A stretch of 64,000 nt of DNA from an uncultured Planctomycetota bacterium (lineage in GTDB: Bacteria; Planctomycetota; Planctomycetia; Isosphaerales; Isosphaeraceae). A program made the position numbers and the translations under genes. The stretch covers positions 320,001 through 384,000 of the forward strand of contig CAWGMQ010000008.1 of assembly GCA_963823665.1 (NCBI GenBank), given 5' to 3'. Positions 21,001 through 54,304 of this stretch are shown one piece after another. How positions within the stretch are numbered: the first letter of the stretch is position 1; every line of letters begins with the position of its first letter. A model generated the notes under the pieces. That model had not been told where the DNA came from and did no database searches. It was given only the letters and a program-made list of their open reading frames with translations.

Positions 21001-24000
21001 AGCCGGTCAACCTGACGTACGCCTACAACCGACTCAATGAGTTAATGAGCATCACCAATCATGTGGATGCCTCGCAAAGCACGGCGTTCACCTACGACGC
21101 CAACGGCAACCGGACGATGGAGACCATCGGCCAGTTCGACACCGGCACCGACGGCAACGGTAATCCCGTAGTGATGATAGTCGGGAACGCCAGCAGCATG
21201 ACGCCCTACTTCTACAACCTCAACGATGAGCTGGTGAAGACGACCGACGTCGCCAACGGCGGCGTGGTTACGTTCGACTATGACTACACCGGCACGCGCG
21301 ACAAGATGATTGACTCGACGGGCGACACCCGCTACCTCTACGACGGCAGCGGCAATCTGGTGCTGGAATACAACGGCGCAAGCGACGCGACGGTTTTCAG
21401 GTACAACTATGGCCTGGCGCTGGTTTCGAGCGTGGACGCTAGCGCCAGGCGCAATTCTACCTGTTCGATGCGTTGGGCAGCGTATCCGAACTCACCAACC
21501 TGACGGGACAGCTCGTCGCGGAAGGCATGCAGTACGATGCCTGGGGCAACGTGATTCAGTCTTATGCCGGTGGTTCCAGCCCCGTTGGATTCACCGGCCA
21601 GCTTGCTGACACGGATACCGGGCTCGACTACTTCGGGGCTCGCTACTACGACCCAAGCACCGGGACGTTCATCACCCAGGATAGCTACCTTGGTCAATCC
21701 GATACGCCGATAACGTTGAATCGCTATTTGTATGCCGCCGCCAATCCCTTGGCCAATACTGACCCGACGGGACATGCGGACGCACCTCAGAATCCCGCGA
21801 ACTGGGTCGAATCCGACCCTACACCGAGTACTTCACCCAATGCCGCACCGTCGGGACAATTCAACGTTACGGCTGATAATCCCCCGAACTGGGTCGAACT
21901 CGACGCGTCAGCGAATCCCGCACCCGGCGCCACTGGAAACGCGACTGAATCGTCAAACAGTCCTGGGACAGCCGTTGGACAGCCGGTCGCAAGTGCCGCC
22001 GAGCAGTTGAAGGATGACTTTGGCATCGATGTCAACGATCCCTTCTGGAAGTGGAACCCCAAGCTCCAGGACGCATTGGCTCAGATCCAGCAGACTGCCT
22101 TGGAAAAGAACATCCAAGGTATGGAGTGGTCCGCCGAAAATCTAGATAAATACGGCGGCTTTGGTACCGTACCAGGCCCTTCACTGCTTGCCGTATCGGA
22201 TAGTCCTTCTGGCGGCTCAGGTATGGAACACATGGCCACAGTCGGCGCTGGTTACGCGTATGCGGCCACTGGGGATAAAGATTTCAGTTATGCGGTTGGT
22301 CAAGCCTCACAATTCACGTTTGAAGTTGCCCAGGCCGCCCAGGGCACGGAAGAGGCGCGCTTCGCTAATGAGGCAGTTGGCTCTGCCTCCCCACTGACAT
22401 CCGTAGCGGCAAGTCCTTCACGCGAAGCGGCAAGTATAACGCCCGCAGAGGTTCCAACAGAAAGCGAATTGCACTCCCTGGTCGACATGTTGGAAGGTGC
22501 GCAGAGTGGTGTTCACATTTCCATGCCAGCTTACAGGCCTAATTCTCCGGACAGCAATTTCGCGGTAAGCAATGTTAATGCTGTTGATGCTTTCAAACTC
22601 GTTAGTCAAGAGTATACGACGGTAGGTAAGCCAGGTGGTGATGTCTGGCTATCGCCCGGAGTGGATTTTCCCAGTCAGACAAACGTCGAGGAGGTTCAGC
22701 GTCTAACTGGCAGGGCGCCGAGCATAACGCCGGACTTTAATGCCGCCAGTTACCCCGAAAACGATGATAAATCAGGCGTTGGGATTTATAGAGTGCTAAT
22801 TCCGTATGAGCTCGCGACGCTATCTACGCCGACCGAGGGCACCGCTGTCGATTTCTTGCAGGGCGGAAACACGGCTGTCCGTGGGCAAGACTTTTACTTG
22901 GTGAATCCTACGAGAGAATATACCTCGCCCAGCATTGATGTTGTCCCAGAAATGAGGTTACAACGACTTTCCCCCTCTCCACTCGGAGAATTCGGAGCGC
23001 CACATGGTTGGCAGAATGTCAATTTCAATGTTCCGAATCCTACCACGGTACGGCAAACGGGGTCGGTAATCCAAACTGATGTAGGGAACGAGTCCGGGAG
23101 CGAGATTGATCCTGAGAATCTTGATGACGCTCTTGAGCAGCAAGTGTGGGCTGACAGCCTCGGTACCCAACTGGTCCTCTCTACCAAGATCGAATTTACT
23201 ACGCTACCGGTTGGCGAACTTGGTGAATCCATAATCACCGAGATTAGTCCCGCTGGTCTGCCGACCGCAGGGACGATCCTCCTGAGCGCGAATGCCTTGG
23301 GTCTGGGCTGGTTCTTCGATCCGACGCAACAGGGCAACGCCGAATTCAGCCAGCAGGCCGGCCCGTATTCTTTTCAGGCAACTCCAGGCTCGCCGGCCGC
23401 GGGTAAGTACGATCTGGAAACCGTGCTGCTGCACGAAATCGGCCACTTGCTCGGCATCGATCCGCAAATCCCGGGTTTTGTGGCACACGTCGGCATGGTC
23501 GCCGGGTCCGCAGTGTTCGCCGACGGCGGAGTCTCGGCAACCTTCGTGCCGCAAGCCGATGACCTCGATCCGAACCTGTATCCCAACGACCTGATGAGCC
23601 TCGACCTCGCACCCGGCGAGCGACGTCTTCCTTCGGCGCTGGACGTGCAAATCATCGACGCCGTGCGCAGCACGTCGCTGGCCGAGATCGCCAGCGGGGT
23701 GATCAGCAATGATGCACAGGCAACATCGGGCGCGCCCGGGAGCTCCGCATTTCCAGGATCGTCCCAGCCGGCACGGCTGGGCGCCTGGGACGACGACAAC
23801 ATCATCAACGGCAACTTCGCCATCACGGATCCCACCGTTCCGCAGTTCGGCTGGACCGAACGCGGCTCCGTCACGGTCACGGGCGGCCAGGGAGTGTTAT
23901 CGGAGAACCCGAATGTCTTCAGCGAGCTGGCGCAGAGCTTCACCATCCCTGCCAATGTCACCGCCTTGCGCTTCACGGTGTATTCCCAGTTCAGCGACAA

Positions 24001-37938: not shown

Positions 37939-37986
37939 CCGGGGAGGCGACTCGAAGCCTGACCTGCGGATGATGCGACCGCCGCT
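37939..37986 (-). repeat. Degenerate att copy (3' part of tRNA-Met)
   Basis: Matches 54007-54055 with one deletion and two substitutions. Confidence 0.9.
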
Positions 37987-39885: not shown

Positions 39886-39937
39886 TACCGGGGAGGCGAC
39901 TCGAACGCCTGACCTGCGGATTATGAGACCGCCGCTC
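39886..39937 (-). repeat. att site: exact 52 bp copy of the tRNA-Met 3' part
   Basis: Identical to 54005-54056 (taccggggaggcgactcgaacgcctgacctgcggattatgagaccgccgctc). Confidence 0.97.
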
Positions 39938-40019
39938 GCGAACCGCAAAGATATCAAATCAAACGACTTGCGTCAACACACACCCGAGGCGACAGCGCAG
40001 GGACAGCGCGGCGTCGAAT

Positions 40020-40115
40020 GACCCCGGTTTGACCGCCGTCATCGAGGCATGGGATCGACTGCCCGAGGCCGTCCGCGCTGGCATCGTGGCGATGGTAAAG
40101 GCCGCGGCGAAGTAA
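40020..40115 (+). repeat. Copy 2 of conserved coding tail DPGLTAVIEAWDRLPEAVRAGIVAMVKAAAK*
   Basis: Lies 82 bp inside the left att. No in-frame start codon between the TGA at 39924 and the motif. Confidence 0.9.
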
Positions 40116-40201
40116 GTGCGTCCATTCCCGTCTCGTGCTGAGAACCGGTGCAAGTGAATTCGGAAGCCGCGATGTAGTAAAATCTCCCGGAGTGGATCGC
40201 G

Positions 40202-41102
40202 ATGGCGCTGGTTCATATTAACGGACGTCTTTATTACACCAAGTCAGTGCGACGGGGCGCAAGGGTCACATCCCAGTGTCTGGGAACCGGAGAAGACGCT
40301 GTATTGTTTGCCCAAATGGACGCGTTGCTCCGAGAGGAAGTGCGCGTGCAGGCGAAGCCAGGAATGGGAATGGAAGCGCGAACAGGCCAAGGCGCATCGA
40401 GCCCGGAAAGAGGAAAGAAAGGCCCTTCAAGATCAACTCAAGTCCACCGACCGCGCCATGGCAATGCACTTCCGGACGGTCGGCAAGACTGTCGAGACCC
40501 TGTTGATGGCGCTGGGGTTCCATCGACACGAACGCGGGGAATGGCGACGGAGGCGCAAGGCCATGAGCACCGAACTGGCTGAGACGGATGTTCAAGAACT
40601 GGTCAAGTTAGCTCGTGAAGGTGATCAGATCGCACTGGGCGAGCTGGCCTATCATGCCAGTCGCGCGCTTAAGCCGATCGATCCCTACTCAGGCGATCTG
40701 GCCCGGGCCGTCGTAGAGCCGATGCTGATTGATCTCGTTGCAGAGAAATATGACCCGTTGCGAGACGCCGTGGCCGCCAAACTTGAAGCGCTTCGCCGCG
40801 AATTGGCCCCCCGCGGTTCCTCGATGGCTGAGCGCCTGTTGGCTGAGCGCGCGGCATTCTGCTGGCTTCACGTGCTACTGCTGGAGAGGGACCGGGCCGA
40901 ATTGTTCCAGAACTTTGAGGCCGGTCACGATGTTGACTATCGCAAGATCACGATGGTTGACCAAAGTCTCTCCCGCGCGCAGGTCCGGTTAGAGCGATCT
41001 CTTGTCGCTCTGGCCAAGGTCCGACGACTGAAACTCCCGACCGTCATCAATCAGGTCAACGTCGGCGCGCAGGTCAACGGCGCCGTCCTATCCGAAATCT
41101 GA
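40202..41102 (+). CDS. Element-associated hypothetical protein; fused paralog of the 43757/44055 gene pair (frameshift about 40350)
   Basis: MALVHINGRLYYTKSVRRGARVTS..GFHRHERGEWRRRR continues in frame into ..ERLLAERAAFCW..LAKVRRLKLP..QVN. Confidence 0.65.
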
Positions 41103-41262
41103 AGCGCCGTATGGCTGGCTCGCCGATTGTTCCGGGCCGTTTGGGCCGGCATCGTGCTCATGGTCTGCGCCGCTGGTTCTCGAATCGAAGGATGATGCAC
41201 GTTAGACTTCGGTTTGCACGGCTATCGTGCAGCCCGACGTCTTTTTCGGTCCGGGGGGAGAA

Positions 41263-41892
41263 ATGTCCAACCGCTTTCAAGAGGGACGCTGGCGAGATTG
41301 GTACGAGGCCAACGCGATGGAGCTGTCGGCTTTCTGTCTCGCACGTGGTCGGTACGAGGTGGCTCACGAACTGCACGCCATTGGAACAGATTCGTACGAG
41401 CGAGAAGTGGTTAACAAGGCATATCCCGGCGATACCGCCGCTGAACGAGAACACTACCGCCAAGTCCTTCGAGAATACAAGGAACGCCTTGCCGAGTTTC
41501 CATTGCTGGTGTCCACCCGATCCCGATTCCTTGAGAGCCTGAGTGCGAATGCAGGGGGGATCGACCGAGACAAATTCAAGACCAAGGTAAACCATGAGGG
41601 CTCGACCGCCTTCGGGGTGATCTGCAATCAACTCGCACGAGGGGGATGGCTTCGCCAGGAGAAGACGTGAAAGAAGTACACGCTTTACCCCGCAGAAACC
41701 CCTCCGCCTAGCGATGAAGTTTTCGTGAGAAAGGAAATGCCTACACCGGAAGAGTTGGACGCCAAAGCTGCCTCGGCCCGCCCGATCGCATCGTTCAACG
41801 CGAATCTTCCGCTAGAATAGCGATCTGGATGTCTGCCAAGATTCTTTGCATTGATCATGGTCGTTCTTACTCTGATCTGGGGTTGCCGATGA
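41263..41892 (+). pseudogene. Hypothetical wHTH-like protein with a C-terminal membrane tail and two in-frame stops
   Basis: The frame reads ..GWLRQEKT*KKYTLY.. (TGA 41668) and ..LPLE*RSGCLPRFFALIMVVLTLIWGCR (TAG 41818). Confidence 0.5.
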
Positions 41893-42220
41893 CCGAAGTA
41901 ATAACCCCCTGCGATAACTCGACGCCAGCCCGCCTCGGCTCGGATTGGGGGAGACTGAACGGGGCGCGATGAGCCGCGCCGTTATCAACGCCGCCAGAGC
42001 GCCCACGCTGACGAATGCATGGCGATCGGCCACGCGGAAGTCTTTTGCATCGACAGAGGCCCTTCGCGCCCGCATCGGGGCGACGATACGCGCGCCGGGA
42101 TGAGTGTGATTCGAGTCTCACTCGGATAATTGATTTGAACCAATGCGAGTTTTTTAATTGCGAACCTCAGACAGATGGGATACCCTCCAGAATCCGCTGG
42201 TTCAATGAAAGGAGAAGGCG

Positions 42221-43399
42221 ATGGCTGCCAAGACTCGTCTCACATGTCCGAAATGCAACCGAAAATCTTCAACACCTAGTGAAATGAAGGAAGGGACGAA
42301 AGTCCGCTGTCCTTCGTGCCAAGAAGTTTTCAAATACGTCCCCGAGGTCGAAGCGATAGACCTGGCTGAAATCGCTGAAATCGAGGTATTGCCGCCAACG
42401 GGAACGGGACGTCTCAAGCCGAACGTCGTCAGAGCGGAGATAGTCCCGCCCCCCGTGCCGGTCCAGCCTACGCCTGTTCATTCCGTGCAGATGGTGAATG
42501 TCAATCTTCCCGCTACGAGAAAGGGGAATTCGCTAGCTGTTGCGGCGCTCGTGCTTGGAATCATCGCCGCCCTAATTTGCTGGGTTCCATTTCTTGGGCT
42601 CCTTGCTATTCCTGTCGCGTTGTTAGGGGCGTTTCTTGGGTTCATCGGATTGGCAATAGCACTGATCGGACGACGATCCGGCCTTTCCTCATCATTGGTC
42701 GGCACGGCGATTAGCTTGGGATCGATCGTGCTCTCGATCGTGATCACAGGGAAGACGTCTAAGTCGATTGCTGATGCGATGGAAAAAAGCTCAAGGGAAG
42801 AGCGTGCGGTTGCAAAAGCGGTCGATAATCCTGGCCAGCCGGTCGCTATTCCTACCAAAACGAAACCCAACGGAGCTGCTGAACCACAGCGATCGCCTGT
42901 CCAGAACGGCGAGGGCATTCCGGCAATCAAGGGTCGAGAGGAATGGGTCACCGCTCCGACTCCTGCAAAGCTCGGAGATGTGATTGTGATAGTTCGCACT
43001 GCCAAAATTGATCGAGTTCCTCTCAAGGTAATTCAAGGGGAAGGCCAATCCGAAGAGCCGATGTTGATGGTCAACTTGGAGATAACGAACACAAACCCGA
43101 ATCGAAAAATCGACTACAAGAGTTGGGCCGGACAAAGTATTTCATTCCAGCGCGACTTCGCCACCCTAAAAGACAACAATGGGAATAATTATAAAAGAAT
43201 ATCGTTTGGACTTTCCGAGCGGCCAATTGGAAGATCTGATTCTGACTCCATCTATCCAGAGAAAGCCCTCGGAGACGTCCTGGTCTTTGAGATGCCATTG
43301 AAGACCGCCGAGACTTTGGACCTTGAGTTGCCCGCCGCGAATGTTGGTGAGAAGGGCTCTTTTAGAATCCGCATTCCTGCTGCCATGATCGAAAGGTGA
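42221..43399 (+). CDS. Zn-ribbon + DUF4190-like transmembrane + Ig-like extracytoplasmic domain protein
   Basis: CPKC..CPSC; LAVAALVLGI..WVPFLG membrane helices; LKDNNGNNY..SIYP..DVLVFE; strong RBS. Confidence 0.8.
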   Translation: MAAKTRLTCPKCNRKSSTPSEMKEGTKVRCPSCQEVFKYVPEVEAIDLAEIAEIEVLPPTGTGRLKPNVVRAEIVPPPVPVQPTPVHSVQMVNVNLPATRKGNSLAVAALVLGIIAALICWVPFLGLLAIPVALLGAFLGFIGLAIALIGRRSGLSSSLVGTAISLGSIVLSIVITGKTSKSIADAMEKSSREERAVAKAVDNPGQPVAIPTKTKPNGAAEPQRSPVQNGEGIPAIKGREEWVTAPTPAKLGDVIVIVRTAKIDRVPLKVIQGEGQSEEPMLMVNLEITNTNPNRKIDYKSWAGQSISFQRDFATLKDNNGNNYKRISFGLSERPIGRSDSDSIYPEKALGDVLVFEMPLKTAETLDLELPAANVGEKGSFRIRIPAAMIER

Positions 43400-43756
43400 G
43401 TGCGTCGAGTGGATTCGGAACACCCGGCGATGTCCGGCTAATAGGTGCATGACTCATGCACGTACGCTTGGGGGGGCGATCAGACACCTGGCGGTCAGTC
43501 TTTTTCAACCGCAGATGGCCAAACGCGCGCATTTCGTCAAAATTGGAGCCGTTTGAATCGAGCCGATTCCGGCCCGGAATCATCGCAACGCTACAATAGA
43601 ACCGGCCCCCGGGGGATAGGGGGTTGATTTGCTGGGGGTTTCAACTGCGGGATCGTAGTCGACCCCGCGCACATTTATTCGCGCACTTTTCGCATTTTGT
43701 GATAGCATGCACTTGCCGACAGACTGAAGCGGCGCAAAGGGGAGACCGTAGTACAC

Positions 43757-44155
43757 ATGGCCCTGGTTCATCGCAACGGCCGAACCTACATCTACCGATC
43801 CGTTAGGCGGAATGGTAGGGTGACCTCGGAATATGGCGGAAGCGGCATCGACGCCTTCCTAATCAGCCGAATGGAGGCGATCGATCGCGACGAACGGGAC
43901 TACAATCGACGGCTGGAAAGTGAAGACCGCCGGAAACTCGACGAAATTGAGAAAGCCCTCGACGAGCTTACTGCACAAGCCCGAGCCCTCGCACGCGACG
44001 CCCTGACCGCCGCCGGGTATCATCAGCATTGTCGGGGCAAATGGAGGAAACGACGTGGAAACCACCGTGGTGGGCGCGAACGACCGCGAGCGAATGATGG
44101 ACAATTGGGTGGTCAAAGAGCTGGTCAACTGGACCGCCGGCAAGAGGGGCAATGA
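43757..44155 (+). CDS. Element-associated hypothetical protein (YRSVRRNGRVTSEYxG family)
   Basis: Paralogous to the N-terminal half of 40202-41102; GGAG RBS. Confidence 0.7.
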   Translation: MALVHRNGRTYIYRSVRRNGRVTSEYGGSGIDAFLISRMEAIDRDERDYNRRLESEDRRKLDEIEKALDELTAQARALARDALTAAGYHQHCRGKWRKRRGNHRGGRERPRANDGQLGGQRAGQLDRRQEGQ

Positions 44156-44495
44156 GCAGACAAAAGAGAAATTGCGGCAAGATTTGCGGAACATCGTCGC
44201 CGACCTTGTCGGCCCCAATCCAAGCCCCGCTGAGCTAGTGCTTGCCGAGACTGCCGCGATCAATTGGTTCGCCCTCCGCATGTTTGAGGCCCGCTATTCG
44301 GGATCGGCGACCTCCGATGAAGGGCTAACACTGGGTCAATCCGAGCATCAGCAACGTCGGATCGACCGGACACACCGACGGTTTTTGGACACCATCAAGA
44401 CCCTGGCAACGGTGCGCCGTCTCGCCCTGCCCGCCGTTCAGATCAACGTCGCCCGCCAGCAAGTCAATCAAGTGAACGTCGGAGAGTCGGCATGA
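44055..44495 (+). CDS. Element-associated helical hypothetical protein
   Basis: GTG start with GGAGG RBS; paralogous to the C-terminal half of 40202-41102 (TLATVRRLALPAVQINV..QVN). Confidence 0.75.
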   Translation: METTVVGANDRERMMDNWVVKELVNWTAGKRGNEQTKEKLRQDLRNIVADLVGPNPSPAELVLAETAAINWFALRMFEARYSGSATSDEGLTLGQSEHQQRRIDRTHRRFLDTIKTLATVRRLALPAVQINVARQQVNQVNVGESA

Positions 44496-44776
44496 GACGA
44501 CGAAAAGCGCTCAATCGGGGTGGCCGCCCATCCAAGTTCACGACCGCCGCCGTGGTGAGGATCACGTCCAGGTTGCTCGATGGAGAGACACTGGACGCCG
44601 CCGCCCGTGCTGCTGGCGTGGGACCCTCGACGCTCTACCGATGGATGGCCCAGGCCAAGGCCGGGGACCCTCGGTTCGGACCGATCAACGCCGTCGTGAG
44701 GCAAACCAAGCACGCGAAGCAACTCGGTGCTGCTCTTGGCTTCTTCCTACCAAAACTGATCAAGGCCGGTTTTTAG
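44492..44776 (+). CDS. HTH protein resembling the terminase small subunit N-terminus
   Basis: GRPSKFT..LLDGETLDAAARAAGVGPSTLYRW; ATGA overlap with the upstream gene. Confidence 0.6.
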   Translation: MRRRKALNRGGRPSKFTTAAVVRITSRLLDGETLDAAARAAGVGPSTLYRWMAQAKAGDPRFGPINAVVRQTKHAKQLGAALGFFLPKLIKAGF

Positions 44777-45009
44777 AAATCGTTTCGCTGGTTGCAGTGA
44801 AATAGCAGCGAAGGAATCTCCCAAAACCGACCCCGAAGGATGGCGGTGATTTTGAGAATCGCTTAAGTCGACAAATGAAGCCGGCCCTTGTGCGCGTTGA
44901 AAACTCTTGGCAATATTGACACCAGTGGCGTCCAAGTAACAAAAATGAAGGAAGTGCGCAAGATGGGTCAGATGGGATGCACTGTGACCTTTGAGAGTCG
45001 TCTTTTGAA

Positions 45010-45555
45010 ATGTTTGAAGCCGCAAGATTGCTCGGACCGACAACACGAAGTATCGTTTTGCAGACCCATCTTGGCAACAAGATCGTAAATGAGATCGCCC
45101 TAGCACCGGACGAGGGGAGTATAAGAAAGTACGAGCGCTTACTTGCGAATCATCCGCACTGGTCTAAGCGCAGGCCACCTTATGGCATTTGCAACTGCGT
45201 CGGGCATGTATGGGCAAGCAGGCGGACTGCTGTATACGAGAATCTTGACAGCCAAGTAATCAGAGTTTTTGACGACGATGGCTACACGGCGTTGGACTGG
45301 CCTAGAGAGAGTTTGTGGTTAGGCGACCTGGTTACCTATTGGGATTCGGCGAAACGACACAAGGGGTTTTTCCACGTCGGCATTGTGTTTGAAATTAGGA
45401 GTCTACCCGACGGAACTCAGCAGATACCTTGGATACTCAGTAAGTGGGATGACAGTTCAGGGGAAGTCCTGCATCACTACAAGGAAGTGCCTTTCTCGGA
45501 CGACATAGAAGCGGAGTTCTGGACGGACCGTGCACTAGGAAGGACTGGGCGATGA
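45010..45555 (+). CDS. Papain/NlpC-P60-like cysteine hydrolase-fold protein
   Basis: CNCVGHVW..GDLVTY..FHVGIV..ILSKW suggests a Cys-His dyad. Confidence 0.55.
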   Translation: MFEAARLLGPTTRSIVLQTHLGNKIVNEIALAPDEGSIRKYERLLANHPHWSKRRPPYGICNCVGHVWASRRTAVYENLDSQVIRVFDDDGYTALDWPRESLWLGDLVTYWDSAKRHKGFFHVGIVFEIRSLPDGTQQIPWILSKWDDSSGEVLHHYKEVPFSDDIEAEFWTDRALGRTGR

Positions 45556-46061
45556 CTGCGCTCGCGCTGCTGAAAACCGACGAGTTTAACTTCTCCATCG
45601 GATTTCATCATACGCCCGCCGTTGTCAGGCGCAGGCTGCTCATGTCTCCCATCGTGCGACACGTAGCAGCCGCTCTGCGGTTCGGCGCTATCACAGAAGC
45701 GATGCTGCGGGAGTTCGTCGGATCGATCATGTCAGAGTTCACCGCGGGGCGCCGCCTCCCAAATGATCTGGCGCTGGCTGCCGTTGCAGTCGTGCTTGAA
45801 TTACGCCCAACCGACTTCGCAGGCGAGTACCTTCATGATTTGGCGCGCCTTCGGTTATCCGAGATGACAGTCAGCATTTTCGTCGCCCGCGAATGTCTGA
45901 AGAATCGGTGTTCGGTTCCGAAACACCAGACTAAGACATTTGTTTTCCCGTCGGCCAGTAGACCCCCAAGGGAGTTGCGCGTGTCGATGCAACGACGACG
46001 AGTGTTCACCATGTCCCCGCGCTTGGTCGCGTCGTATTCCGCATATATAGAGACCGCGTAA
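45552..46061 (+). CDS. Hypothetical protein
   Basis: ATGA overlap upstream and TAATG overlap downstream. Confidence 0.7.
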   Translation: MTALALLKTDEFNFSIGFHHTPAVVRRRLLMSPIVRHVAAALRFGAITEAMLREFVGSIMSEFTAGRRLPNDLALAAVAVVLELRPTDFAGEYLHDLARLRLSEMTVSIFVARECLKNRCSVPKHQTKTFVFPSASRPPRELRVSMQRRRVFTMSPRLVASYSAYIETA

Positions 46062-46498
46062 TGGCAAGGCTCGAATACTTCATTGTCTGCGAATCTTGCT
46101 CCGTCGATGCGGAGAAAAATAGTGTCAGTTTTTTCCATGTGCTGGAAGACATATTCCCAGATAAATTCCCGTATGAGATCTCAACAGTAGACGCCGTGAG
46201 CCTCTGGAATCTGGACCCCGCTGACCGAGATACCGATTTCCAGGCGACGGTCGTGATCAGTGTTCCCGGTTCCACACGTGGCGTCGAAGTCCCTATGAAC
46301 CTGTCGCGGGGCCACATGAGACACAGGGCAGCCGTGACCATCACGGGCATTCCGATAATTTGTCCCGGGGAACTCCTGTTCGAGGTGAAGCTGAATGGCC
46401 TTCATGGGGCGAATCACATCGTATATATCCATGATACTCCGGCTCTAAAAGCCGCGGAGAGGTTGACAACAGATACGACCACTACGTCACTTGACTGA
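46061..46498 (+). CDS. DUF6941-like beta-sandwich protein
   Basis: LEYFIVCESCSVDAEKNSVSFF..PGELLFEVKLNG pattern. Confidence 0.6.
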   Translation: MARLEYFIVCESCSVDAEKNSVSFFHVLEDIFPDKFPYEISTVDAVSLWNLDPADRDTDFQATVVISVPGSTRGVEVPMNLSRGHMRHRAAVTITGIPIICPGELLFEVKLNGLHGANHIVYIHDTPALKAAERLTTDTTTTSLD

Positions 46499-46766
46499 TA
46501 TGTGGACACTGACAACCTCGCGGTTGCGTGTCTGCGACGTCGAAAGACGAGCCCGCGCGTCTGCTCAAACACTTCGCCGGGTATCGGAGAGGCGTAAGTA
46601 GATCTCACGGCCGCCTCGCGGTGACCTGGAATCGAACGCGCCCGCGACGCTACACTGAGCGGGGGATGGTTTGATCGGTGGCCACTGGTCAGGCCCAACG
46701 CGGACCCGGCATCACGCTCCCCTGTGCGTGCGCTGCCGGGTCCGGCCCGTTCACAGGAGACGCGAG

Positions 46767-48326
46767 ATGTCGAGCCGGGATGACTTTGAGGCCGCGCGCA
46801 AGGCCGCGATTGACTGCGCTACCGCCTCGGGGTGGTTGCTTCAGGTTGCCACCGGGAAAGCCCGGCTTACGCCAACCCAAGAGCGGGAGATTGCGAAGGT
46901 TCTCGATGAACAGGCAGGGGACGACCGACCGCTCGAAATGCCCGATCCGATGCCGATCTTTCTCCCGAACGCCATCGGCGCGTTGTGCCAGGCGTTGGCG
47001 AGCGGCTGGGGTGTCATCTCGAAGGTGGAGGATGACTTGACCCTGGCGGCCCCCGCCTCTGCGACCGCCGGGGGGATGACGCGCGCGAGCGCGCATCGGC
47101 TGGCCTGGGACTTTGGCCGCCACCTATGGGCGTCTATTCGCAATCTCGACCACCGCCTTGACCCTCAGTGGCAGTGTTCCGGTACTATCGACGCAAGCCG
47201 ATTCGACCTGGATGGGGCGTCTGTCAAAGAGAACCTGCCTGCCATTGTGGCTGAGCTGACCGCGAAACCGCCTTTCGATGGTGGCCGCGTCGTTGCTCTT
47301 ATCAAACAGGAATTTGTCCGCGCGATTGAGCGCTTGGAATCGACCCGGGCCGAGCCGTCCCGAGAAACCGACCGGCGCATCCCCTCTCTCGAAGAACTGA
47401 ACTTAATCGCGCACGCCCTTCGCGATTTTCTGGCCACAGTCGAGAAGTACAAGCTCTTGCTTCGTGAGCCCGACTCATCGAATGTAATGGCCGTTCAAAT
47501 GCCCCGTTTTGCGGTGCTCGAATCACTCTGCCGGCTGGAGAATCTGCTTAACCTTTCACGATTGCCCTACAATTCGGCGCCTGGCGCCAACTACGCTGTA
47601 CGTTTCTGGCCCTACGACGTCATGATCGCTCTGCCGACATTGAGAGCGCACGTATATGAACTCATCAAGCGATGGGACATACCCGAAGTCTGTAACGATG
47701 GCAAGATTTTGCGGAGTTATCCTGCCGGCATCTTCCCACCATCTTTCACTTTGACGCCCGCCGAACGCGATGGGCTGGGATTGGCGTTGTCGTTGCTCCT
47801 CGGAGTCTTGCAGCCGAGCCCAGCCAGCCCGCAGCCACCGCTACCCAATCCGGAGACGCTGGGCGCTGTACAGAAGCCGCCGGCTCACTCACATGGGGAG
47901 GCGCCTGGCGGGGTGATATTCCTGCCGCCAATTCACGACCCTACGCTATTAGCCGCCCCTCTCTACTTGATTGATCCGAACGCGCGTACGATCAGGAGAG
48001 TTGAGCCTGGCGCGGCGCCCTCGGCAACCGAAGCCGATGGTCAAGGGACCGCTGAACAGGGGAGACCGCCCGCCGCAGGGACCGTGACGCCCGAGGCCCC
48101 CGCCGAGCTGCCCGACCTTGTGACTTTGGATCAGGCCGCCGCGGCTGTCCACAAGAGCAAGCGCGCCCTGGAATACCATAAGAGCAAGGGTACGTTGCCA
48201 GCCCCGTTTGTCGAAGGGGGAGCCGGCAAGGCGTCTCTGTACGACTGGAAGTTGATCGGCCCTTGGCTGGCCAGGGAGTTCGGCATCCCACAGCCCGAGA
48301 AATTCCCGCGACCTCGGGAGAGCTGA
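46767..48326 (+). CDS. Hypothetical protein with a C-terminal MerR/Xis-like HTH (possible element regulator)
   Basis: AGGAGA RBS before ATG 46767; DLVTLDQAAAAVHKSKRALE..LPAP..LYDW. Confidence 0.7.
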   Translation: MSSRDDFEAARKAAIDCATASGWLLQVATGKARLTPTQEREIAKVLDEQAGDDRPLEMPDPMPIFLPNAIGALCQALASGWGVISKVEDDLTLAAPASATAGGMTRASAHRLAWDFGRHLWASIRNLDHRLDPQWQCSGTIDASRFDLDGASVKENLPAIVAELTAKPPFDGGRVVALIKQEFVRAIERLESTRAEPSRETDRRIPSLEELNLIAHALRDFLATVEKYKLLLREPDSSNVMAVQMPRFAVLESLCRLENLLNLSRLPYNSAPGANYAVRFWPYDVMIALPTLRAHVYELIKRWDIPEVCNDGKILRSYPAGIFPPSFTLTPAERDGLGLALSLLLGVLQPSPASPQPPLPNPETLGAVQKPPAHSHGEAPGGVIFLPPIHDPTLLAAPLYLIDPNARTIRRVEPGAAPSATEADGQGTAEQGRPPAAGTVTPEAPAELPDLVTLDQAAAAVHKSKRALEYHKSKGTLPAPFVEGGAGKASLYDWKLIGPWLAREFGIPQPEKFPRPRES

Positions 48327-48354
48327 CCGCAATGCATAAGAGTTCGCCAACCGA

Positions 48355-48381
48355 AAACCGCCACAAACCGCACTAAACCGC
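48355..48381 (+). promoter_or_regulatory. Three AAACCGC direct repeats with a 10 bp period upstream of the Xis-like operon
   Basis: Copies start at 48355, 48365 and 48375. Confidence 0.6.
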
Positions 48382-48440
48382 CCCCCTGCCTGATACGGTC
48401 ATTCGCGTGGTTCCCATTTCTCCATTTTGGAGACACGCGA

Positions 48441-48674
48441 ATGATCGAGCCTGTGCTGATCGAGCCCGGGGCGCTCTACGATGACGGATCGCTCCGCCAA
48501 GCCCTCGGGTTGACTGACGCCGCCCTCGCGAACGCCCGCCGCGCGGGGGTACTCCGCTACACACGGCAGGGGAAGCGGACCCTGTACTTGGGAAAGTGGA
48601 TTCTGGCTTGGCTGGAGAGCCAGGCCGCCCCCCAGACCGAGGCCGCCCGGCCCGAGGGGGTTGCCCGTGCCTAA
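48441..48674 (+). CDS. Excisionase-like HTH protein
   Basis: LGLTDAALANARRAGVLRYTRQGKRTLYLG; GGAG RBS. Confidence 0.75.
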   Translation: MIEPVLIEPGALYDDGSLRQALGLTDAALANARRAGVLRYTRQGKRTLYLGKWILAWLESQAAPQTEAARPEGVARA

Positions 48675-48942
48675 ACACGAACGCCCCCAGCCCGAGGCCG
48701 GAGGCGCTGTGGATGATCCGCGACAAGATCATCCTACCGCGCAACCGCCCGCTGTCTCAATCCACGACAAGCTGACCTGGGGATGGGACGACGTCGCCGC
48801 CCTGACCGGACTGTCCCGTCGGTTGCTTGAGCGCCAACTCTCTGCCGGCAAGATGCCGCTGCCTGACTTAAGGATTGGCCGACGTGTTCTCTGGCGACCC
48901 GAGACTATCCGCCGATGGATTGGGGAGGGTGGCCGCCAATGA
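48667..48942 (+). CDS. AlpA/Xis-like HTH protein
   Basis: DVAALTGLSRRLLER..GKMPLPDLRIGRRVLWRPETIRRW. Confidence 0.8.
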   Translation: MPKHERPQPEAGGAVDDPRQDHPTAQPPAVSIHDKLTWGWDDVAALTGLSRRLLERQLSAGKMPLPDLRIGRRVLWRPETIRRWIGEGGRQ

Positions 48943-50633
48943 GCTTGCCAACCTCCTATGAAGCTTGGACGCTTGCGCGCGTCGCTTGCGGGATGCCCCT
49001 TAATGGTGAGCTGCACAAACTGTCCGAGCCGTGGCGATCGCTGGCCGAAGCGATGGCAGGCGCGCTCAAGGACAAGCGGCAATCCATTCTCGACGGATTC
49101 CTGGCCGGCCGCCCCGATCGAGACGCCATCATCAAGGCCATAGCCGACGCCGATCCTAATGGACCGCCGCCGCCCTCCGAGGCAATCCCGTCGCGCGATG
49201 CGTGGCCGCCCTTGCGCCTCGACGAGCTGCCTTCTGTTGAAGCATTTCCGGCCGACGTTCTACCGCCGATCGCTGCTCAACTTGTAATCGAGGGAGCGGA
49301 CGCGATCGGTTGCGCGCCGGATTTCCTCGGGCTCACGATGCTGGCCGTTGCAGGGGGAACAATCGGCCGATCGGTGAGCTTGCTGTTGAAGCCGAATTAC
49401 TTCGTCAGTGCGACGCTCTACTCGGGTTGCATCGGACCGCCCTCGGACGGGAAGACGCCTGCCCTTAAGGCCGCCGCCGCCCCGGTTCGTTCGATTGACG
49501 ACGAGCTGGCCGCCGAACACGCCGCCGCGATGGAACGATGGCGAGCGGACCAAATCGGCCCCGATGGCAAGGAGAAGAGAACCAAGCCCCCCGCGCCGCC
49601 GAGACCCCGGAGGATCGATATCGATGACGCCACGATGGAAGTTTTGCCTCTTATCCTGGCGGACAACCCGCGGGGACTGATCATGATTCGGGATGAGCTG
49701 AGCGCATTCGTCCTCGGGATGAATCAGTTCAAGGGAGGAAAGGGCAATGATCGATCCAACGCGCTCAAGATCTGGTCAGGCGACCGAATTATCAAGGATC
49801 GCGTGAACCACGAAGGCGGAACGCCGATCCGTTGCACGCATCCTGCGCTCAGTATCGTCGGTGGGTTGACGCCGGACCTGCTCGGGGAACTGACCGACCC
49901 GAAGGGAAGCGCCGACGGGTTCATCGACCGGTTCTTGCTGGCATATCCTGACCCCCGGCCCGTGCCCGATTGGTCGGATCGCGGGATTCCCGAGGTTCTC
50001 CTCGACGACTGGCGATCTCTGGTCGCCCGTTTGTGGATGAGACCCCTCGACGTCAAGGAAGGCAAGGAAGTCCCCCATGTCATGCGATTCACGCCCGAGG
50101 GAAAGGCCCGCTGGCAAAAACGCTATGACGAGCATTCCGCGGAGATGAACGCAACAGATTTCCCGCCGTTCCTACGTGGACCCTGGGGTAAATTTCGCGA
50201 GTACGCTGGTCGCCTGACCCTCATTGTGACTCTGACGCATCACGCTGCGGACCCGACCGCGGACGCCTTGGCCCTGCCCGATGTTGGTCCGCGACAGGTT
50301 GACGCTGCGTGGCGATTGGTCAGTTACTTCAAGAGCCACGCAAGGCGAATCCGCGCTGTCATCGCGTCCGGACCCGGAACCGGTGAAACTCGCGCTGCGA
50401 AAGCCATCGTGGATTGGGTGCGATCCAGAGACCTATCAAGCTTCACCGAGAAAGACATCAAACAGGCGCGACGATGGATCAATCACAGCGACCTGCTCGA
50501 CGCCCTCGACTATCTAATCGACCGGGGTGCAATTCGGCCCCGTCAAGCACCGACGCCAACCGCCAAGGGTGGCCGGCCGCCGTCTCCAGCCTACGACGTT
50601 AATCCTGAGTTGCTGGCTACTGCAAACCCTTAG
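48939..50633 (+). CDS. DUF3987 (YfjI-like) P-loop replication protein
   Basis: FPADVLP..GPPSDGKT (Walker A)..IRDELS (Walker B)..DGFIDRFL..AGRL; C-terminal wHTH. Confidence 0.88.
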   Translation: MSLPTSYEAWTLARVACGMPLNGELHKLSEPWRSLAEAMAGALKDKRQSILDGFLAGRPDRDAIIKAIADADPNGPPPPSEAIPSRDAWPPLRLDELPSVEAFPADVLPPIAAQLVIEGADAIGCAPDFLGLTMLAVAGGTIGRSVSLLLKPNYFVSATLYSGCIGPPSDGKTPALKAAAAPVRSIDDELAAEHAAAMERWRADQIGPDGKEKRTKPPAPPRPRRIDIDDATMEVLPLILADNPRGLIMIRDELSAFVLGMNQFKGGKGNDRSNALKIWSGDRIIKDRVNHEGGTPIRCTHPALSIVGGLTPDLLGELTDPKGSADGFIDRFLLAYPDPRPVPDWSDRGIPEVLLDDWRSLVARLWMRPLDVKEGKEVPHVMRFTPEGKARWQKRYDEHSAEMNATDFPPFLRGPWGKFREYAGRLTLIVTLTHHAADPTADALALPDVGPRQVDAAWRLVSYFKSHARRIRAVIASGPGTGETRAAKAIVDWVRSRDLSSFTEKDIKQARRWINHSDLLDALDYLIDRGAIRPRQAPTPTAKGGRPPSPAYDVNPELLATANP

Positions 50634-50695
50634 AACCCTAGAAACCGACGCCCCAAGCGGTTGCCCGCGACCGGTTCTTAGGGTTCTTAGGGTTT
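50624..50695. repeat. 24 bp imperfect inverted repeat built of 9 bp iterons (candidate replication origin)
   Basis: aaacccttagaaccctagaaaccg ... cggttcttagggttcttagggttt, located between DUF3987 and the primase gene. Confidence 0.7.
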
Positions 50696-50721
50696 CTAGC
50701 AACAAGTATCGGGTGCATGCG

Positions 50722-52206
50722 ATGGGAATGGGCGCGTCTGTCGAGAACCCCTGGATCATGGTTGCTGGAAGTGATCGGATCGACTGGGCGGATGTCCGCG
50801 ACCGGGTTAACCTGGCCGCCATCGCGACCGCCTTGCTTGGCCCCGCCGCCGGCCGCCGCGGGGAGGGTGGCCGCCGCCTCTGGTGGCCCTGCCCGTTCCA
50901 TGCTGACCGGAATCCGTCTTTCGCCGTCGAGCCTGGCAAGCCCTGGTGGCGATGCTACGGGTGCGGAGAGCACGGGGATGCCCCCGCGCTGGTGATGAAG
51001 GTTCAGGCAGTTACTTTCCCCGAGGCCGTTCGCTGGCTTGCCGAGCAATCCGGAATCGCGACGTCATCGAGCCGCCCCTGGCGCCCCTCGGGGAGAGAGC
51101 CGATCCGCCGGAGGCCCCCGGACGCTGGCCCCCTCAAAGCCCCTGAGAGGCCCGCCAAGCAGCCCTCGGGATTGCCCCTGGCCGATGCGTTGAAGCTAGT
51201 CGAAGATGCCGCCGAACGAATCTGGAGGCCCGAGGGACTGGTGGCCCTGGAATATCTCCGACGCCGTGGACTGACCGATGAGACAATACGTCAGGCCCGC
51301 CTCGGGTGGGCGCCCGATGTTTCCATTCCGGTGAAGGATGGAATCCGATACTGGCGAGTCTCTGGCATCGTCATTCCCTGGGTGGACCGTGGCCGCCTGG
51401 CGATGGTGAAGATCCGCCGACGCACGGGACAAGAGCCGAAGTATGCGGAAGCGTTTCGCGACCGCCCTTCGATCTTTCCGACCCCCGAGGCCGTTCGCCC
51501 TGGGAAGCCGCTGGTGATCGTGGAAGGGGAGTTTGACGCCCTCTTACTGGGTCAGGCCCTCGGGGAGCTGGCCGCCGTTGTGACCCTCGGTTCGGCATCG
51601 GCCCGCCCCGAGGGATCGACCTATCTGGCGATGCTTCCCGCCCCTGTCTGGTATCTGGCGACCGACGCCGACCCCGCTGGGGACACGGCCGCCGAAGGGT
51701 GGCCGGCCCGAGCGGTTCGCGTCGAGCCCCCCTCGGGGAAGGATTGGACCGAGGCCGCCCAAGCCGGGGTGGACCTGCGCCAATGGTGGACCGACCGCCT
51801 CGGGGGACTCGAGACCGCCCCGCCTGACCCGGCCCCCTGGAAGGTGTCGTCCTCGGGGGACGTCGAGCGAGACACGCAATCGCCCTCGGGGTCCGAGGCC
51901 CCCGCCGCCTCGACGCCCTGGCCGCCCCGCCCCGATGAGCTGGCAAGCTGGCCCCTTGAGTGGCGCGAACGCTGGGGAGCGCTGGCGAACGACCTGGAAG
52001 CCCGAGGGGTGTCGTTCCCCGAATCCGAGGCCGAAGCGTTCCGACTAGTCAAACGCGAGATGGAAGCCGGCCCCGTCGAGCTGTCTCGCCCGCCCGAGGC
52101 GTCGAGCCGCGCGGCGGAGGCCCATTTCGCGCAGGCGACGCTGTTCACTAGAAGTAGTGTACAAGATTCCGGTTTACGGGGGGGGGTACACTATAATGTT
52201 CACTAA
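50722..52206 (+). CDS. DnaG-like primase (CHC2 zinc finger + Toprim)
   Basis: CPFHADRNPSF..CYGC; IVEGEFDAL; ATDADPAGD; KDWTE. Exact start is uncertain. Confidence 0.88.
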   Translation: MGMGASVENPWIMVAGSDRIDWADVRDRVNLAAIATALLGPAAGRRGEGGRRLWWPCPFHADRNPSFAVEPGKPWWRCYGCGEHGDAPALVMKVQAVTFPEAVRWLAEQSGIATSSSRPWRPSGREPIRRRPPDAGPLKAPERPAKQPSGLPLADALKLVEDAAERIWRPEGLVALEYLRRRGLTDETIRQARLGWAPDVSIPVKDGIRYWRVSGIVIPWVDRGRLAMVKIRRRTGQEPKYAEAFRDRPSIFPTPEAVRPGKPLVIVEGEFDALLLGQALGELAAVVTLGSASARPEGSTYLAMLPAPVWYLATDADPAGDTAAEGWPARAVRVEPPSGKDWTEAAQAGVDLRQWWTDRLGGLETAPPDPAPWKVSSSGDVERDTQSPSGSEAPAASTPWPPRPDELASWPLEWRERWGALANDLEARGVSFPESEAEAFRLVKREMEAGPVELSRPPEASSRAAEAHFAQATLFTRSSVQDSGLRGGVHYNVH

Positions 52207-52236
52207 CAAAGTGTGATGACATGTTCACTAAGTGAA
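52142..52236. promoter_or_regulatory. Cluster of five GTWCACTA motifs in an AT-rich tract
   Basis: Forward copies at 52143, 52186, 52198 and 52223; inverted copy at 52155. Confidence 0.6.
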
Positions 52237-52275
52237 ATTGATGCGAATTGTGGCGAATTTCTTCCGACCACATAC

Positions 52276-52304
52276 TTGCGTCGAGTCGAAGTATCTGGTA
52301 TCTT
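52276..52304 (+). promoter_or_regulatory. Sigma70-like promoter for the HTH-integrase operon, probably leaderless
   Basis: TTGCGT-17 nt-TATCTT, then 6 nt to ATG 52311; no SD sequence. Confidence 0.55.
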
Positions 52305-52310
52305 CGAGCC

Positions 52311-52526
52311 ATGAGATACGCAAAGCTGAGTGACGAAATCAGGGAAGCGGTGAACGCCTCGGGGATGAGCCGTTACGCGATCGCCAAGGCCCTCGGGATT
52401 GCCGAATCCACGATGAGCCGATTCGCGAACGGCAAAGGCGGACTATCGATGGACATCCTCGACCGGCTGGCCGAACTGCTGGGATTACACATCGTCGTGA
52501 AGCGCACGAAGAAACATGGGAGCTGA
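52311..52526 (+). CDS. XRE/Cro-like HTH regulator
   Basis: SGMSRYAIAKALGIAESTMSRFANG..LDRLAELLGL. Confidence 0.88.
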   Translation: MRYAKLSDEIREAVNASGMSRYAIAKALGIAESTMSRFANGKGGLSMDILDRLAELLGLHIVVKRTKKHGS

Positions 52527-52529
52527 CCA

Positions 52530-54059
52530 ATGGCATCGTTTCGGAAGCATGGCAAGGTTTGGTATTACCGGTTCGTCGATGGGGACGGAAAGAAGCTTGA
52601 GCGGAAGGGTTGCTCCGACCGCCGGATGACTGAGGACATCGCCCGCGCCGCGGAATCCGAAGCCGCCAGTATCCGCGGTGGCTTGGCCAACCCGAAGGAA
52701 CTGGGCTATCGCGACCACGCAACCCTTTCAATCTCGGATCATACTACCGCGTGGGTGGAATCCCTCGAAGCTAAGGGCGCGACGCCCAAGCATGTCGAGC
52801 TGTTCACTCGACGCGCCCGGAGGGTTTTCGCGTTAGTCAGGGGAGCTAAGCTGGCCGAAATCGAGCCCGCGAAAAACGCAACGCGAGCGGACATCAAGAA
52901 AGCCGAGGAGAGTCTCAAGACGTGGGTAGAACCGGCGCGGCTGGCCGACCTGACCGAAGAGCGGGTTCAGAAAGCTCTGGCGACGCTGAAGGCGGAAGGA
53001 CGCTCGCATCAAACTTGTAATCATCATCGAGCCGCGGCCCGTGCATTCGCGAAATGGTGCCACGACACGCATCGGACACGCGATAACGCCCTTCGAGCGG
53101 TGAAGGGCTACAACATCAAGGAAGACCGCCGACACGACCGCCGGACGATTTCTCTCGATGAGCTACACAAGCTCATTCAGGCCGCGGACCGCGGACCCAC
53201 AGTGTTGGGAATTCCCGGCCCCGTTCGGGCACTGTGTTACCGGCTGGCCGTGGCGACCGGCTTGCGCTATGGCGAGATTAGCAGCATCACGCCCGAGTCA
53301 TTCAACTGGGATGCCCCGAGCGTCACTGTAACGGCCGCCTATACGAAGAACGGCGACCCCGCGACGCTTCCTCTTCCGGAAGACTTGGCGGACGACCTGG
53401 CCGCATTTGTAGCATCGGTTCCCGCTGGGGAGGCTATCTTCGCGTTGCCAAACGAAAAGGGCGCGGAAATGCTTCGGGTGGACCTGGAAGCCGCTGGCAT
53501 CGACTATCAAGACGCCTCGGGGTTGTTCTTCGACTTTCATTCCCTCCGATGCCAGACGGCGACTCTGGCCGACGCTGCCGGGGTTTCCCCGAGGGTTGTT
53601 CAGCGTCTCATGCGACATTCGACCCTCGAACTGACCGGCCGCTACACCCGCCCGCGAGCGGTCGACATCGAGGCCGCCGCCTCGATGCTGCCGAGCCTTA
53701 AGCCCGAGGGAAGCCGGCCCGATTCCCTGGCCGCGACCGGGACAGACGGCGGGGTTTCCCACCGACCTGCGTCCGAGGGAAGCGGAACGCCCTCGGCAAT
53801 CGCTTGCGAAATAGGCGTCGAAGACCGACGCATAAACGAAGCCCTTTCCCACCATTTTCCCAACGCAGAGCCCGGATCGGTGCGGAAACACGCGGACACT
53901 GGCGCGATGGAGGGTTTCGCCGTCGATTCGTCGAAGAAGCGCCGCACGCTAGAAAGGAAGGGGTTTGACGCACGCCGCGGCACACTGGCGGGTTCTGTCG
54001 GAAATACCGGGGAGGCGACTCGAACGCCTGACCTGCGGATTATGAGACCGCCGCTCTAA
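52530..54059 (+). CDS. Tyrosine recombinase/integrase
   Basis: TGLR, TKNG, FHSLR, LMRH, GRYT catalytic motifs. The ORF extends through att and ends on a TAA inside the antisense tRNA. Confidence 0.95.
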   Translation: MASFRKHGKVWYYRFVDGDGKKLERKGCSDRRMTEDIARAAESEAASIRGGLANPKELGYRDHATLSISDHTTAWVESLEAKGATPKHVELFTRRARRVFALVRGAKLAEIEPAKNATRADIKKAEESLKTWVEPARLADLTEERVQKALATLKAEGRSHQTCNHHRAAARAFAKWCHDTHRTRDNALRAVKGYNIKEDRRHDRRTISLDELHKLIQAADRGPTVLGIPGPVRALCYRLAVATGLRYGEISSITPESFNWDAPSVTVTAAYTKNGDPATLPLPEDLADDLAAFVASVPAGEAIFALPNEKGAEMLRVDLEAAGIDYQDASGLFFDFHSLRCQTATLADAAGVSPRVVQRLMRHSTLELTGRYTRPRAVDIEAAASMLPSLKPEGSRPDSLAATGTDGGVSHRPASEGSGTPSAIACEIGVEDRRINEALSHHFPNAEPGSVRKHADTGAMEGFAVDSSKKRRTLERKGFDARRGTLAGSVGNTGEATRTPDLRIMRPPL

Positions 54060-54078
54060 CCAGCTGAGCTACCCCGGC
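54005..54078 (-). tRNA. tRNA-Met (CAT), probably elongator; CCA not encoded
   Basis: GCCGGGGTAGCTCAGCTGGTTAGAGCGGCGGTCTCATAATCCGCAGGTCAGGCGTTCGAGTCGCCTCCCCGGTA folds as a cloverleaf with a CAT anticodon. Confidence 0.95.
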
Positions 54079-54304
54079 ATTGACTGAGAACGCCCTCGGA
54101 GCGAATCGATCTCCGAGGGCGTTACCATTGACTGGTTCAAACTAACAGATCGATTGCTTGGCCGCAACTTCTCCACTGGACATCTGAGGTTCCGGCGGGT
54201 TTGGAGCGACGCGATCGTCTTCGCGGCTCTTCGCAATAGCGAGACGGCGAGCGAACGGGGGGTGCACGCCCACAAAGCCAGTGCCGTCCATCCGACACTC
54301 TCAG

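Follow-up and report, generated by a model that had tools for sequence, protein, structure and literature searches.

What becomes of an integrase when the site at which it recombines lies inside its own gene? The question is raised by a ~14-kb mobile element in the genome of an uncultured planctomycete of the family Isosphaeraceae, found in a 64,000-nt stretch of contig CAWGMQ010000008.1 (positions 320,001 to 384,000) that we call the window. The element occupies a tRNA gene, and its recombination site lies within its own tyrosine integrase gene (52530-54059, plus strand; PF00589). In the integrated form, this open reading frame (ORF) encodes 509 aa, runs through a 52-bp attachment (att) core at 54005-54056 and stops at a TAA (54057-54059) just outside the core, in the host part of the target tRNA, which supplies the stop codon. 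The tRNA is intact, lies on the minus strand (54004-54079) and carries a CAT anticodon; ARAGORN calls it Met, though it may be Ile2. An identical core on the plus strand at 39886-39937, a displaced tRNA 3′ fragment in antisense reading, marks the other end of the element, and a 35-nt segment of the core occurs twice in the window against a chance expectation of 0.00.

When the circle was rebuilt in silico, the 82 nt that follow the displaced core (39938-40019, plus strand) prolonged the integrase frame by 27 codons, giving an ORF of 536 aa with a TGA at 40019-40021. This stop overlaps the first codon of a conserved, start-less frame of 31 codons (40020-40115, plus strand; codons 40020-40112, stop 40113-40115), hereafter the tail, which is predicted to form a two-helix hairpin and in this copy lies in the +1 frame with respect to the integrase. 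An earlier note on this DNA had described the core, the read-through and the TAA, whose coordinates hold base for base, and the circle-form stop overlapping the out-of-frame tail, which we reproduced in silico. Because all six catalytic-motif residues (R246, K273, H337, R340, H363 and Y372) lie upstream of att, the core corresponding to residues 493-509, the integrated integrase should be catalytically complete.

The integrase frame across reconstructed attP sites

We reconstructed the phage-type attachment site (attP) in related elements, starting from 75 regions (74 and the window) that had been picked by integrase or tail matches and not by frame. Both ends and a shared core were present in 50 of them; the other 25 had no integrase, no same-strand tail or no core. 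With one tail counted per element, the outermost, and a single crossover rule applied, the tail was in frame with the integrase across attP in 37 of the 50 elements, and in 34 no stop interrupted the stretch between catalytic domain and tail, against about 5 such open elements expected by chance. The open elements span 14 named tRNA/orientation classes, and the distance from core to tail varies between 80 and 262 nt. As to individual elements, the score of L094+95 rests on a match that is not to a tRNA, L091 is broken although in frame, and L070 is open only with the crossover at the anticodon loop. Twenty regions from distant planctomycetes comprised 7 two-ended elements (two from one genus), 11 regions without an integrase in reach and one without a core; all 7 two-ended elements were in frame and open. 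As the earlier note had expected of related elements, the frame of the tail relative to the integrase is not random.

Natural fusions of integrase, att and tail were also found. The PF00589 proteins P0018 (544 aa), P0022 (522 aa), P0040 (517 aa) and P0048 (565 aa) end in the tail, and in P0003 and P0006 the att reading of the window continues in frame into it. In-frame chromosomal fusions occur at L082, L099, L119 and L145; those of L099 and L119 apparently stand at junctions of tandem elements, and the two arm motifs of L082 differ, as expected of a hybrid. L149, on a 43-kb IMG/VR viral contig, encodes a 573-aa fusion and is what would be expected of an attP, since a tRNA fragment is present and no full tRNA was called in the 6-kb locus.

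A further indication came from elements in tRNA-Leu(CAA). Their displaced fragment contains an in-frame TAA in 4/4 cases, and the tRNA half at the tail end is free of it in 3/4. In L070, L073+L074 and L112, in contrast to L071, the supplied half has an altered variable arm that removes the stop from the integrase frame, which is what selection for read-through would predict. By these reconstructions, a large family of planctomycete elements has attP inside int as a rule.

The frame offset in the window copy

The in-frame homologues L082 and L154 carry the same motif as the window with two additional bases at the break site, a GCGC (40004-40012, plus strand), so the offset of the window copy reads best as a loss of 2 nt at about 40004-40012. 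The earlier note had taken it for a 1-nt indel or mutation; an indel and not a conserved feature it appears to be, but of a different size. Like the window, L018 is without the two bases at GCGC. Pattern scans of the motif spacing returned one row in metagenomes, in frame, and three in genomes (one in frame, one offset and one unrelated). Programmed frameshifting at the TGA was rejected, the offset not being conserved and in-frame near-relatives (L082 and L154) existing.

From the sequence, the 2-nt loss is probably an assembly error. Apparent frameshifts, placed by eye, stand at or next to GCGC at 21438, 33782, 40004, 40340, 57077 and 57598, and 7% of positions lie within 3 nt of this motif; the pattern suggests motif-linked sequencing error in the assembly. 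In long-contig assemblies less than 95% complete 11 of 22 elements were out of frame, in all other assemblies 2 of 28 (Fisher p 9e-4, a value that ignores relatedness, with a grouping drawn after the first table had been seen and the sequencing technology unknown). For the window copy alone, the less likely alternative is that the offset arose by true mutation, in a chimeric island undergoing decay. It would fit the mismatched arm repeats of the two ends, the gene pair duplicated in the island with the gene behind the tail likewise frameshifted, the decayed tail copy L002 of this genome, which contains a stop and is offset differently, and the 2-nt loss shared by L018; however, genes outside the island are also frameshifted at GCGC (57077, 33782 and 21438, placed by eye), and offsets concentrate in few-contig, incomplete assemblies. 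Comparison of a frameshifted host gene with relatives returned no close homologue in 12 genomes. Eight sequencing runs were listed for the sequence, each sharing fewer than half of its words, and no RNA run was among them. Read pieces from four runs were short and element-identical; among the pieces listed none bridges 40004-40020, and none has an indel there or a circle joint.

Conservation, predicted structure and possible role of the tail

The tail occurs four times in the source genome, in 83 of 121 genomes of the family and in 37 of 301 genomes sampled across the phylum, and tail-containing protein clusters number 9,225 at E≤1e-3. We collected 93 copies and analysed 86, one near-duplicate and six poorly aligned copies being dropped. 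The tail frame of these 86 is free of stops, whereas the other two forward frames have 43 and 23; the ratio of nonsynonymous to synonymous polymorphism (pN/pS) was 0.47 in the tail frame, 0.97 and 1.68 in those two and 0.96, 0.63 and 1.81 in the reverse frames. By this codon pattern the tail is conserved at the protein level. The window tail matched no Pfam family (the best match of a family member had E 0.012), and the tail matched no NCBIfam family and no PDB sequence (best E 0.52); in the ESM Atlas it matched, below 0.9, only unnamed Planctomycetota clusters. Some short database proteins (P0049, P0050, P0056, P0068, P0078, P0122 and P0142) carry two tail copies per ORF.

The tail was modelled as two helices, with a predicted local distance difference test (pLDDT) value of 96 for the hairpin. 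In the model of a full-length natural fusion the hairpin was again confident and linker residues 406-511 had pLDDT <50; this linker of ~105 residues, predicted to be disordered, corresponds to translated att DNA. The closest fold neighbours of the hairpin were the dimerisation domain of TP901-1 CI (Z 4.2) and the C-terminal domain of CFAP410 (Z 4.1). Taken with the 37 of 50 and 7 of 7 elements in frame and the fusions, the model supports the earlier note in its proposal of an additional helical tail on the integrase encoded by the circle, absent from the integrated form.

On the sequences at hand, we are highly confident in the attP-in-int layout, the conservation of frame, the protein-level conservation of the tail and the natural fusions, taken together. 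With moderate confidence, we consider that they are best explained by an integrase gene that, like that of phage Mx8, contains attP, and whose hairpin is moved on integration. In the circle, the gene would then encode first the integrase domains, next a linker predicted to be disordered and made up of one arm repeat, the tRNA fragment and the other arm repeat, and last the conserved helical hairpin. Integration into the tRNA would shift the hairpin, exon-like, to the far end, where it has no start codon, and would leave behind a gene whose integrase keeps the full catalytic set and ends in a short random stretch; excision would restore the hairpin. Since its best fold neighbours are small oligomerisation domains, we give about an even chance that the hairpin is an oligomerisation module, present only on the circle-encoded integrase and favouring synapsis of attP with the bacterial site attB, and so integration. 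Self-association of the hairpin would help the circle-encoded enzyme to assemble the attP × attB complex; the circle form would thus favour integration, and the tail-less form would suffice for excision with an excisionase. More tentatively, the integrase family, large and without annotation, might use its own recombination as a directionality switch via the tethered hairpin, which would drive integration, with tandem insertions rebuilding attP-like junctions that yield full-length hybrid integrases (the enzyme of one element, the tail of another) and read-through selection editing the supplied tRNA half.

Helical hairpins act in hetero- and homo-oligomers alike, and the hairpin may instead bind another partner, such as a host factor, the excisionase or AlpA-like protein of the element, or part of the integrase surface itself, and may inhibit recombination in the circle. 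The use of such hairpins in hetero-oligomers, a long disordered linker that would let the tail reach any partner and two HTH_17-like proteins encoded by the element speak for this reading, to which we nevertheless assign a minor share of the probability: the tail is kept across integrases 32-67% identical to P0018 and across differing targets, and self-association is the simpler account because the tail is conserved across divergent integrases and in elements with different targets. We regard as very improbable the degradation tag that the earlier note had proposed, by which the tail would destabilise the circle-encoded integrase. A C-terminal location and an Ala-rich last helix would suit a tag, and one paper describes C-terminal tags in mycobacteriophage Rep and Int (PMC3694055). 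In the tail, however, conservation is concentrated in a folded internal W-x-x-L-P core and not at the free end. An Ala-Ala ending, typical of ssrA-type tags, occurs in 0/86 locus copies and 0/145 database proteins, which makes a degron unlikely; the last residues are mostly Arg, Lys, Gly and Ser, Arg and Lys being the commonest, and the window tail, said in the earlier note to end in Ala, ends in Lys.

The tail might also serve, in the integrated state, as a stand-alone micro-protein that acts, for instance, in a dominant-negative way or in setting directionality. Thousands of short ORFs have been annotated for it by gene callers, in sense-type elements it sits just downstream of an intact tRNA gene, and an ATG or TTG stands immediately ahead of the first Asp in 14 of 93 copies. 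A conserved start of the tail, which the earlier note had named as speaking against its own reading, was not found among 145 database proteins and 93 copies. Predicted starts scatter from -6 to 179 residues among the database proteins, with no mode above 7/145; 48 of the 93 copies have no in-frame ATG within 50 codons, only one combines ATG or GTG with a Shine-Dalgarno-like word, and the most frequent start candidates are TTG codons within DNA repeats. The open frame of the tail in the window copy contains no upstream Met. The tail thus has no conserved start of its own, and a micro-protein, which would leave the conservation of frame across att unexplained, has in our judgement the slimmest of chances.

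Several observations weigh against the Mx8-like reading, with its hairpin fused in the circle and detached on integration. Thirteen of the 50 elements are out of frame and another three, though in frame, are closed when the single crossover rule is applied, and related genomes are not independent samples in the counts of 37/50 and 34/50. Among fused-looking copies, L094+95, L127 and, in the distant set, L165 are out of frame, and in L071 neither tRNA copy has lost the in-frame stop. As assembled, the window copy would not yield the fused protein, stopping one base short of the tail; its 2-nt offset recurs in L018 and, judged from translation, in P0001, so that a shared real mutation is possible. 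One reverse frame also has a low pN/pS (0.63), and the codon test leans to the positive because the copies were gathered by protein similarity. As to the fold, Z values of about 4 are weak for a 31-residue hairpin and within the range of a common arrangement, and Foldseek with the tail model returned nothing.

Element layout and comparison with known systems

Putative arm-type integrase sites flank the core in the circle. On the tail side a period-11 direct repeat lies at 39991-40009 (plus strand), a position kept in homologues, and another lies at 53845-53862 (plus strand) within the int coding sequence; in the window copy the two do not match, and by a crude test a repeat unit is common to both arms in 31 of 50 elements. 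Behind the tail stands a gene pair (40202-41102, plus strand) whose first gene is frameshifted near 40340, and a second copy of the pair lies at 43757-44495 (plus strand); the first gene of the 40202 pair is paralogous to the gene at 43757 (54% identity over 48 aa, E 3e-13). The duplication by itself suggests a chimera of two elements; from the duplicated pair and the mismatch of the arm-like repeats, the island is probably chimeric, put together from two elements in tandem, its two ends coming from different ones. The remaining recognisable genes, all on the plus strand, are two small HTH_17-like genes (48441-48942; below the Pfam cut-off), candidates for excisionase or AlpA-type factors; a replication module (48915-52206) that encodes, by Pfam and NCBIfam scans, a DUF3987 protein and a CHC2 zinc finger/Toprim primase-like protein; and, directly upstream of int, an HTH_3 regulator (52248-52526; Pfam scan). 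No capsid or phage-tail family was matched among the element ORFs scanned.

With PF00589, a weak PF02899 and the R-K-H-R-H-Y residues, and with the model of its homologue P0018 matching lambda Int (1z1b) over ~390 columns (E 1.4e-9) and also resembling Tn1549 Int, the window integrase is, by sequence and model, of the lambda type, having N-terminal beta-rich, core-binding and catalytic domains. The element appears to be a phage-satellite-like island that carries such an enzyme. The integrase query had no match among viral contigs, nor had the integrase and tail queries among annotated phages.

Traces of further insertions were seen nearby. A degenerate third copy of the att core, with one base missing and a few mismatches, lies at 37939-37986 and is apparently what remains of an earlier insertion into this tRNA; DUF4365-like and other cargo sits between it and 39886. 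A second orphan tail copy (L003, 36470-36565), 87% identical, has only a trace of the arm repeat upstream, and no att core was seen there. A third tail copy of this genome, sharing the arm type, was found in L002 (1489-1590; G000:C8:1997962, minus) and L007; its arm frame has a stop and an offset of its own, and an integrase fragment lies ~4.5 kb downstream. In L160 and L164, ARAGORN finds a full tRNA-Ala at both ends, and the duplicated core may therefore cover nearly the whole tRNA. Three adjacent cargo ORFs at 45010-46498 (181, 169 and 145 aa) were unmatched in Pfam, and two of them in NCBIfam as well. Elsewhere in the window (7503-26701), two very long, repeat-rich, surface-protein-like ORFs (4,666 and 1,742 aa) with a frame change near 21438 are probably one giant gene.

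The closest known system is the Myxococcus xanthus phage Mx8. According to two publications (PMC6070905 and PMC4383910), its tyrosine integrase (IntP/IntX, IntP being the form in the phage) has attP in the 3′ part of int and acquires on integration a new 3′ end that alters and does not abolish its activity, Mx9 following 'a similar principle'. The likeness extends to the position of the window core, inside the int ORF and 3′ of the catalytic domain (core 493-509, Y372 upstream), to the single open frame past attP that is seen at family level (34/50, 7/7 and the natural fusions) and to the length of Int (533 aa in Mx8); Mx8 Int also ranks among the structural matches to the model of P0018 (E 2.5e-10, 16% identity). 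Mx9 reportedly has its attP inside int too, the wording of the review going no further than the phrase quoted. In contrast, the score of the tail profile against Mx8 Int is 0.3 bits, with the best match outside the C-terminus, and no frame of Mx8 is matched; the planctomycete tail is a conserved, compact hairpin that recurs in thousands of clusters, with many tRNA targets and in both orientations, and, unlike in phage Mx8, it is carried by satellite-like islands of Planctomycetota.

The two analogies drawn in the earlier note fit less well. Archaeal SSV-type or 'suicidal' integrases (SSV1, pTN3 and pT26-2) share the att in int and the tRNA target, and integration splits the gene; there Int(C) holds the catalytic domain and neither half is active (PMC8371274), whereas here only a 31-residue hairpin is detached. 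The element is not of this type because its integrated form retains all six catalytic residues. Mycobacteriophages such as BPs, known for integration-dependent immunity, have attP in the coding sequence of the repressor, and integration removes a C-terminal degradation tag (PMC3694055). The element shares with them an attP in a coding sequence and a C-terminal segment removed by integration; in the window, however, att lies in int, with the HTH_3 gene 1.5 kb upstream of the core, and the tail has no tag-like end (0/86 and 0/145 Ala-Ala). Mx8 is the right analogue. CTD1 of TP901-1 CI, a dimerisation region (PMC4941734), resembles the tail as a two-helix hairpin of ~30 residues (PDB 6fxa; Z 4.2, root-mean-square deviation 1.8, 30 aligned), but at 17% identity and with a Z value tied with unrelated hairpins it is a functional lead and not evidence of homology.

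No printed description of the planctomycete family was found by title or start of abstract, and the Mx8, Mx9 and TIGER papers and supplements, outside this coverage, may list such islands; the text of PMC13626063 contains no 'Planctomyc'. Self-splitting integrase genes are called exclusive to archaea in one review (PMC8371274), and have hitherto been viewed as an archaeal trait and an Mx8 oddity; in Planctomycetota the Mx8 layout would be routine. Thousands of annotated short 'hypothetical proteins' beside tRNA fragments would be explained as detached integrase ends, and integrases cloned from integrated islands for planctomycete genetic tools may miss a part needed for efficient integration. 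The small, defined tail domain also offers, by its deletion, a clean test of how integration state relates to integrase behaviour. Overall, the window copy is a damaged or mis-assembled example of a family whose working is, as far as sequence can tell, Mx8-like, with a conserved tail domain of its own and a phylum-wide spread.

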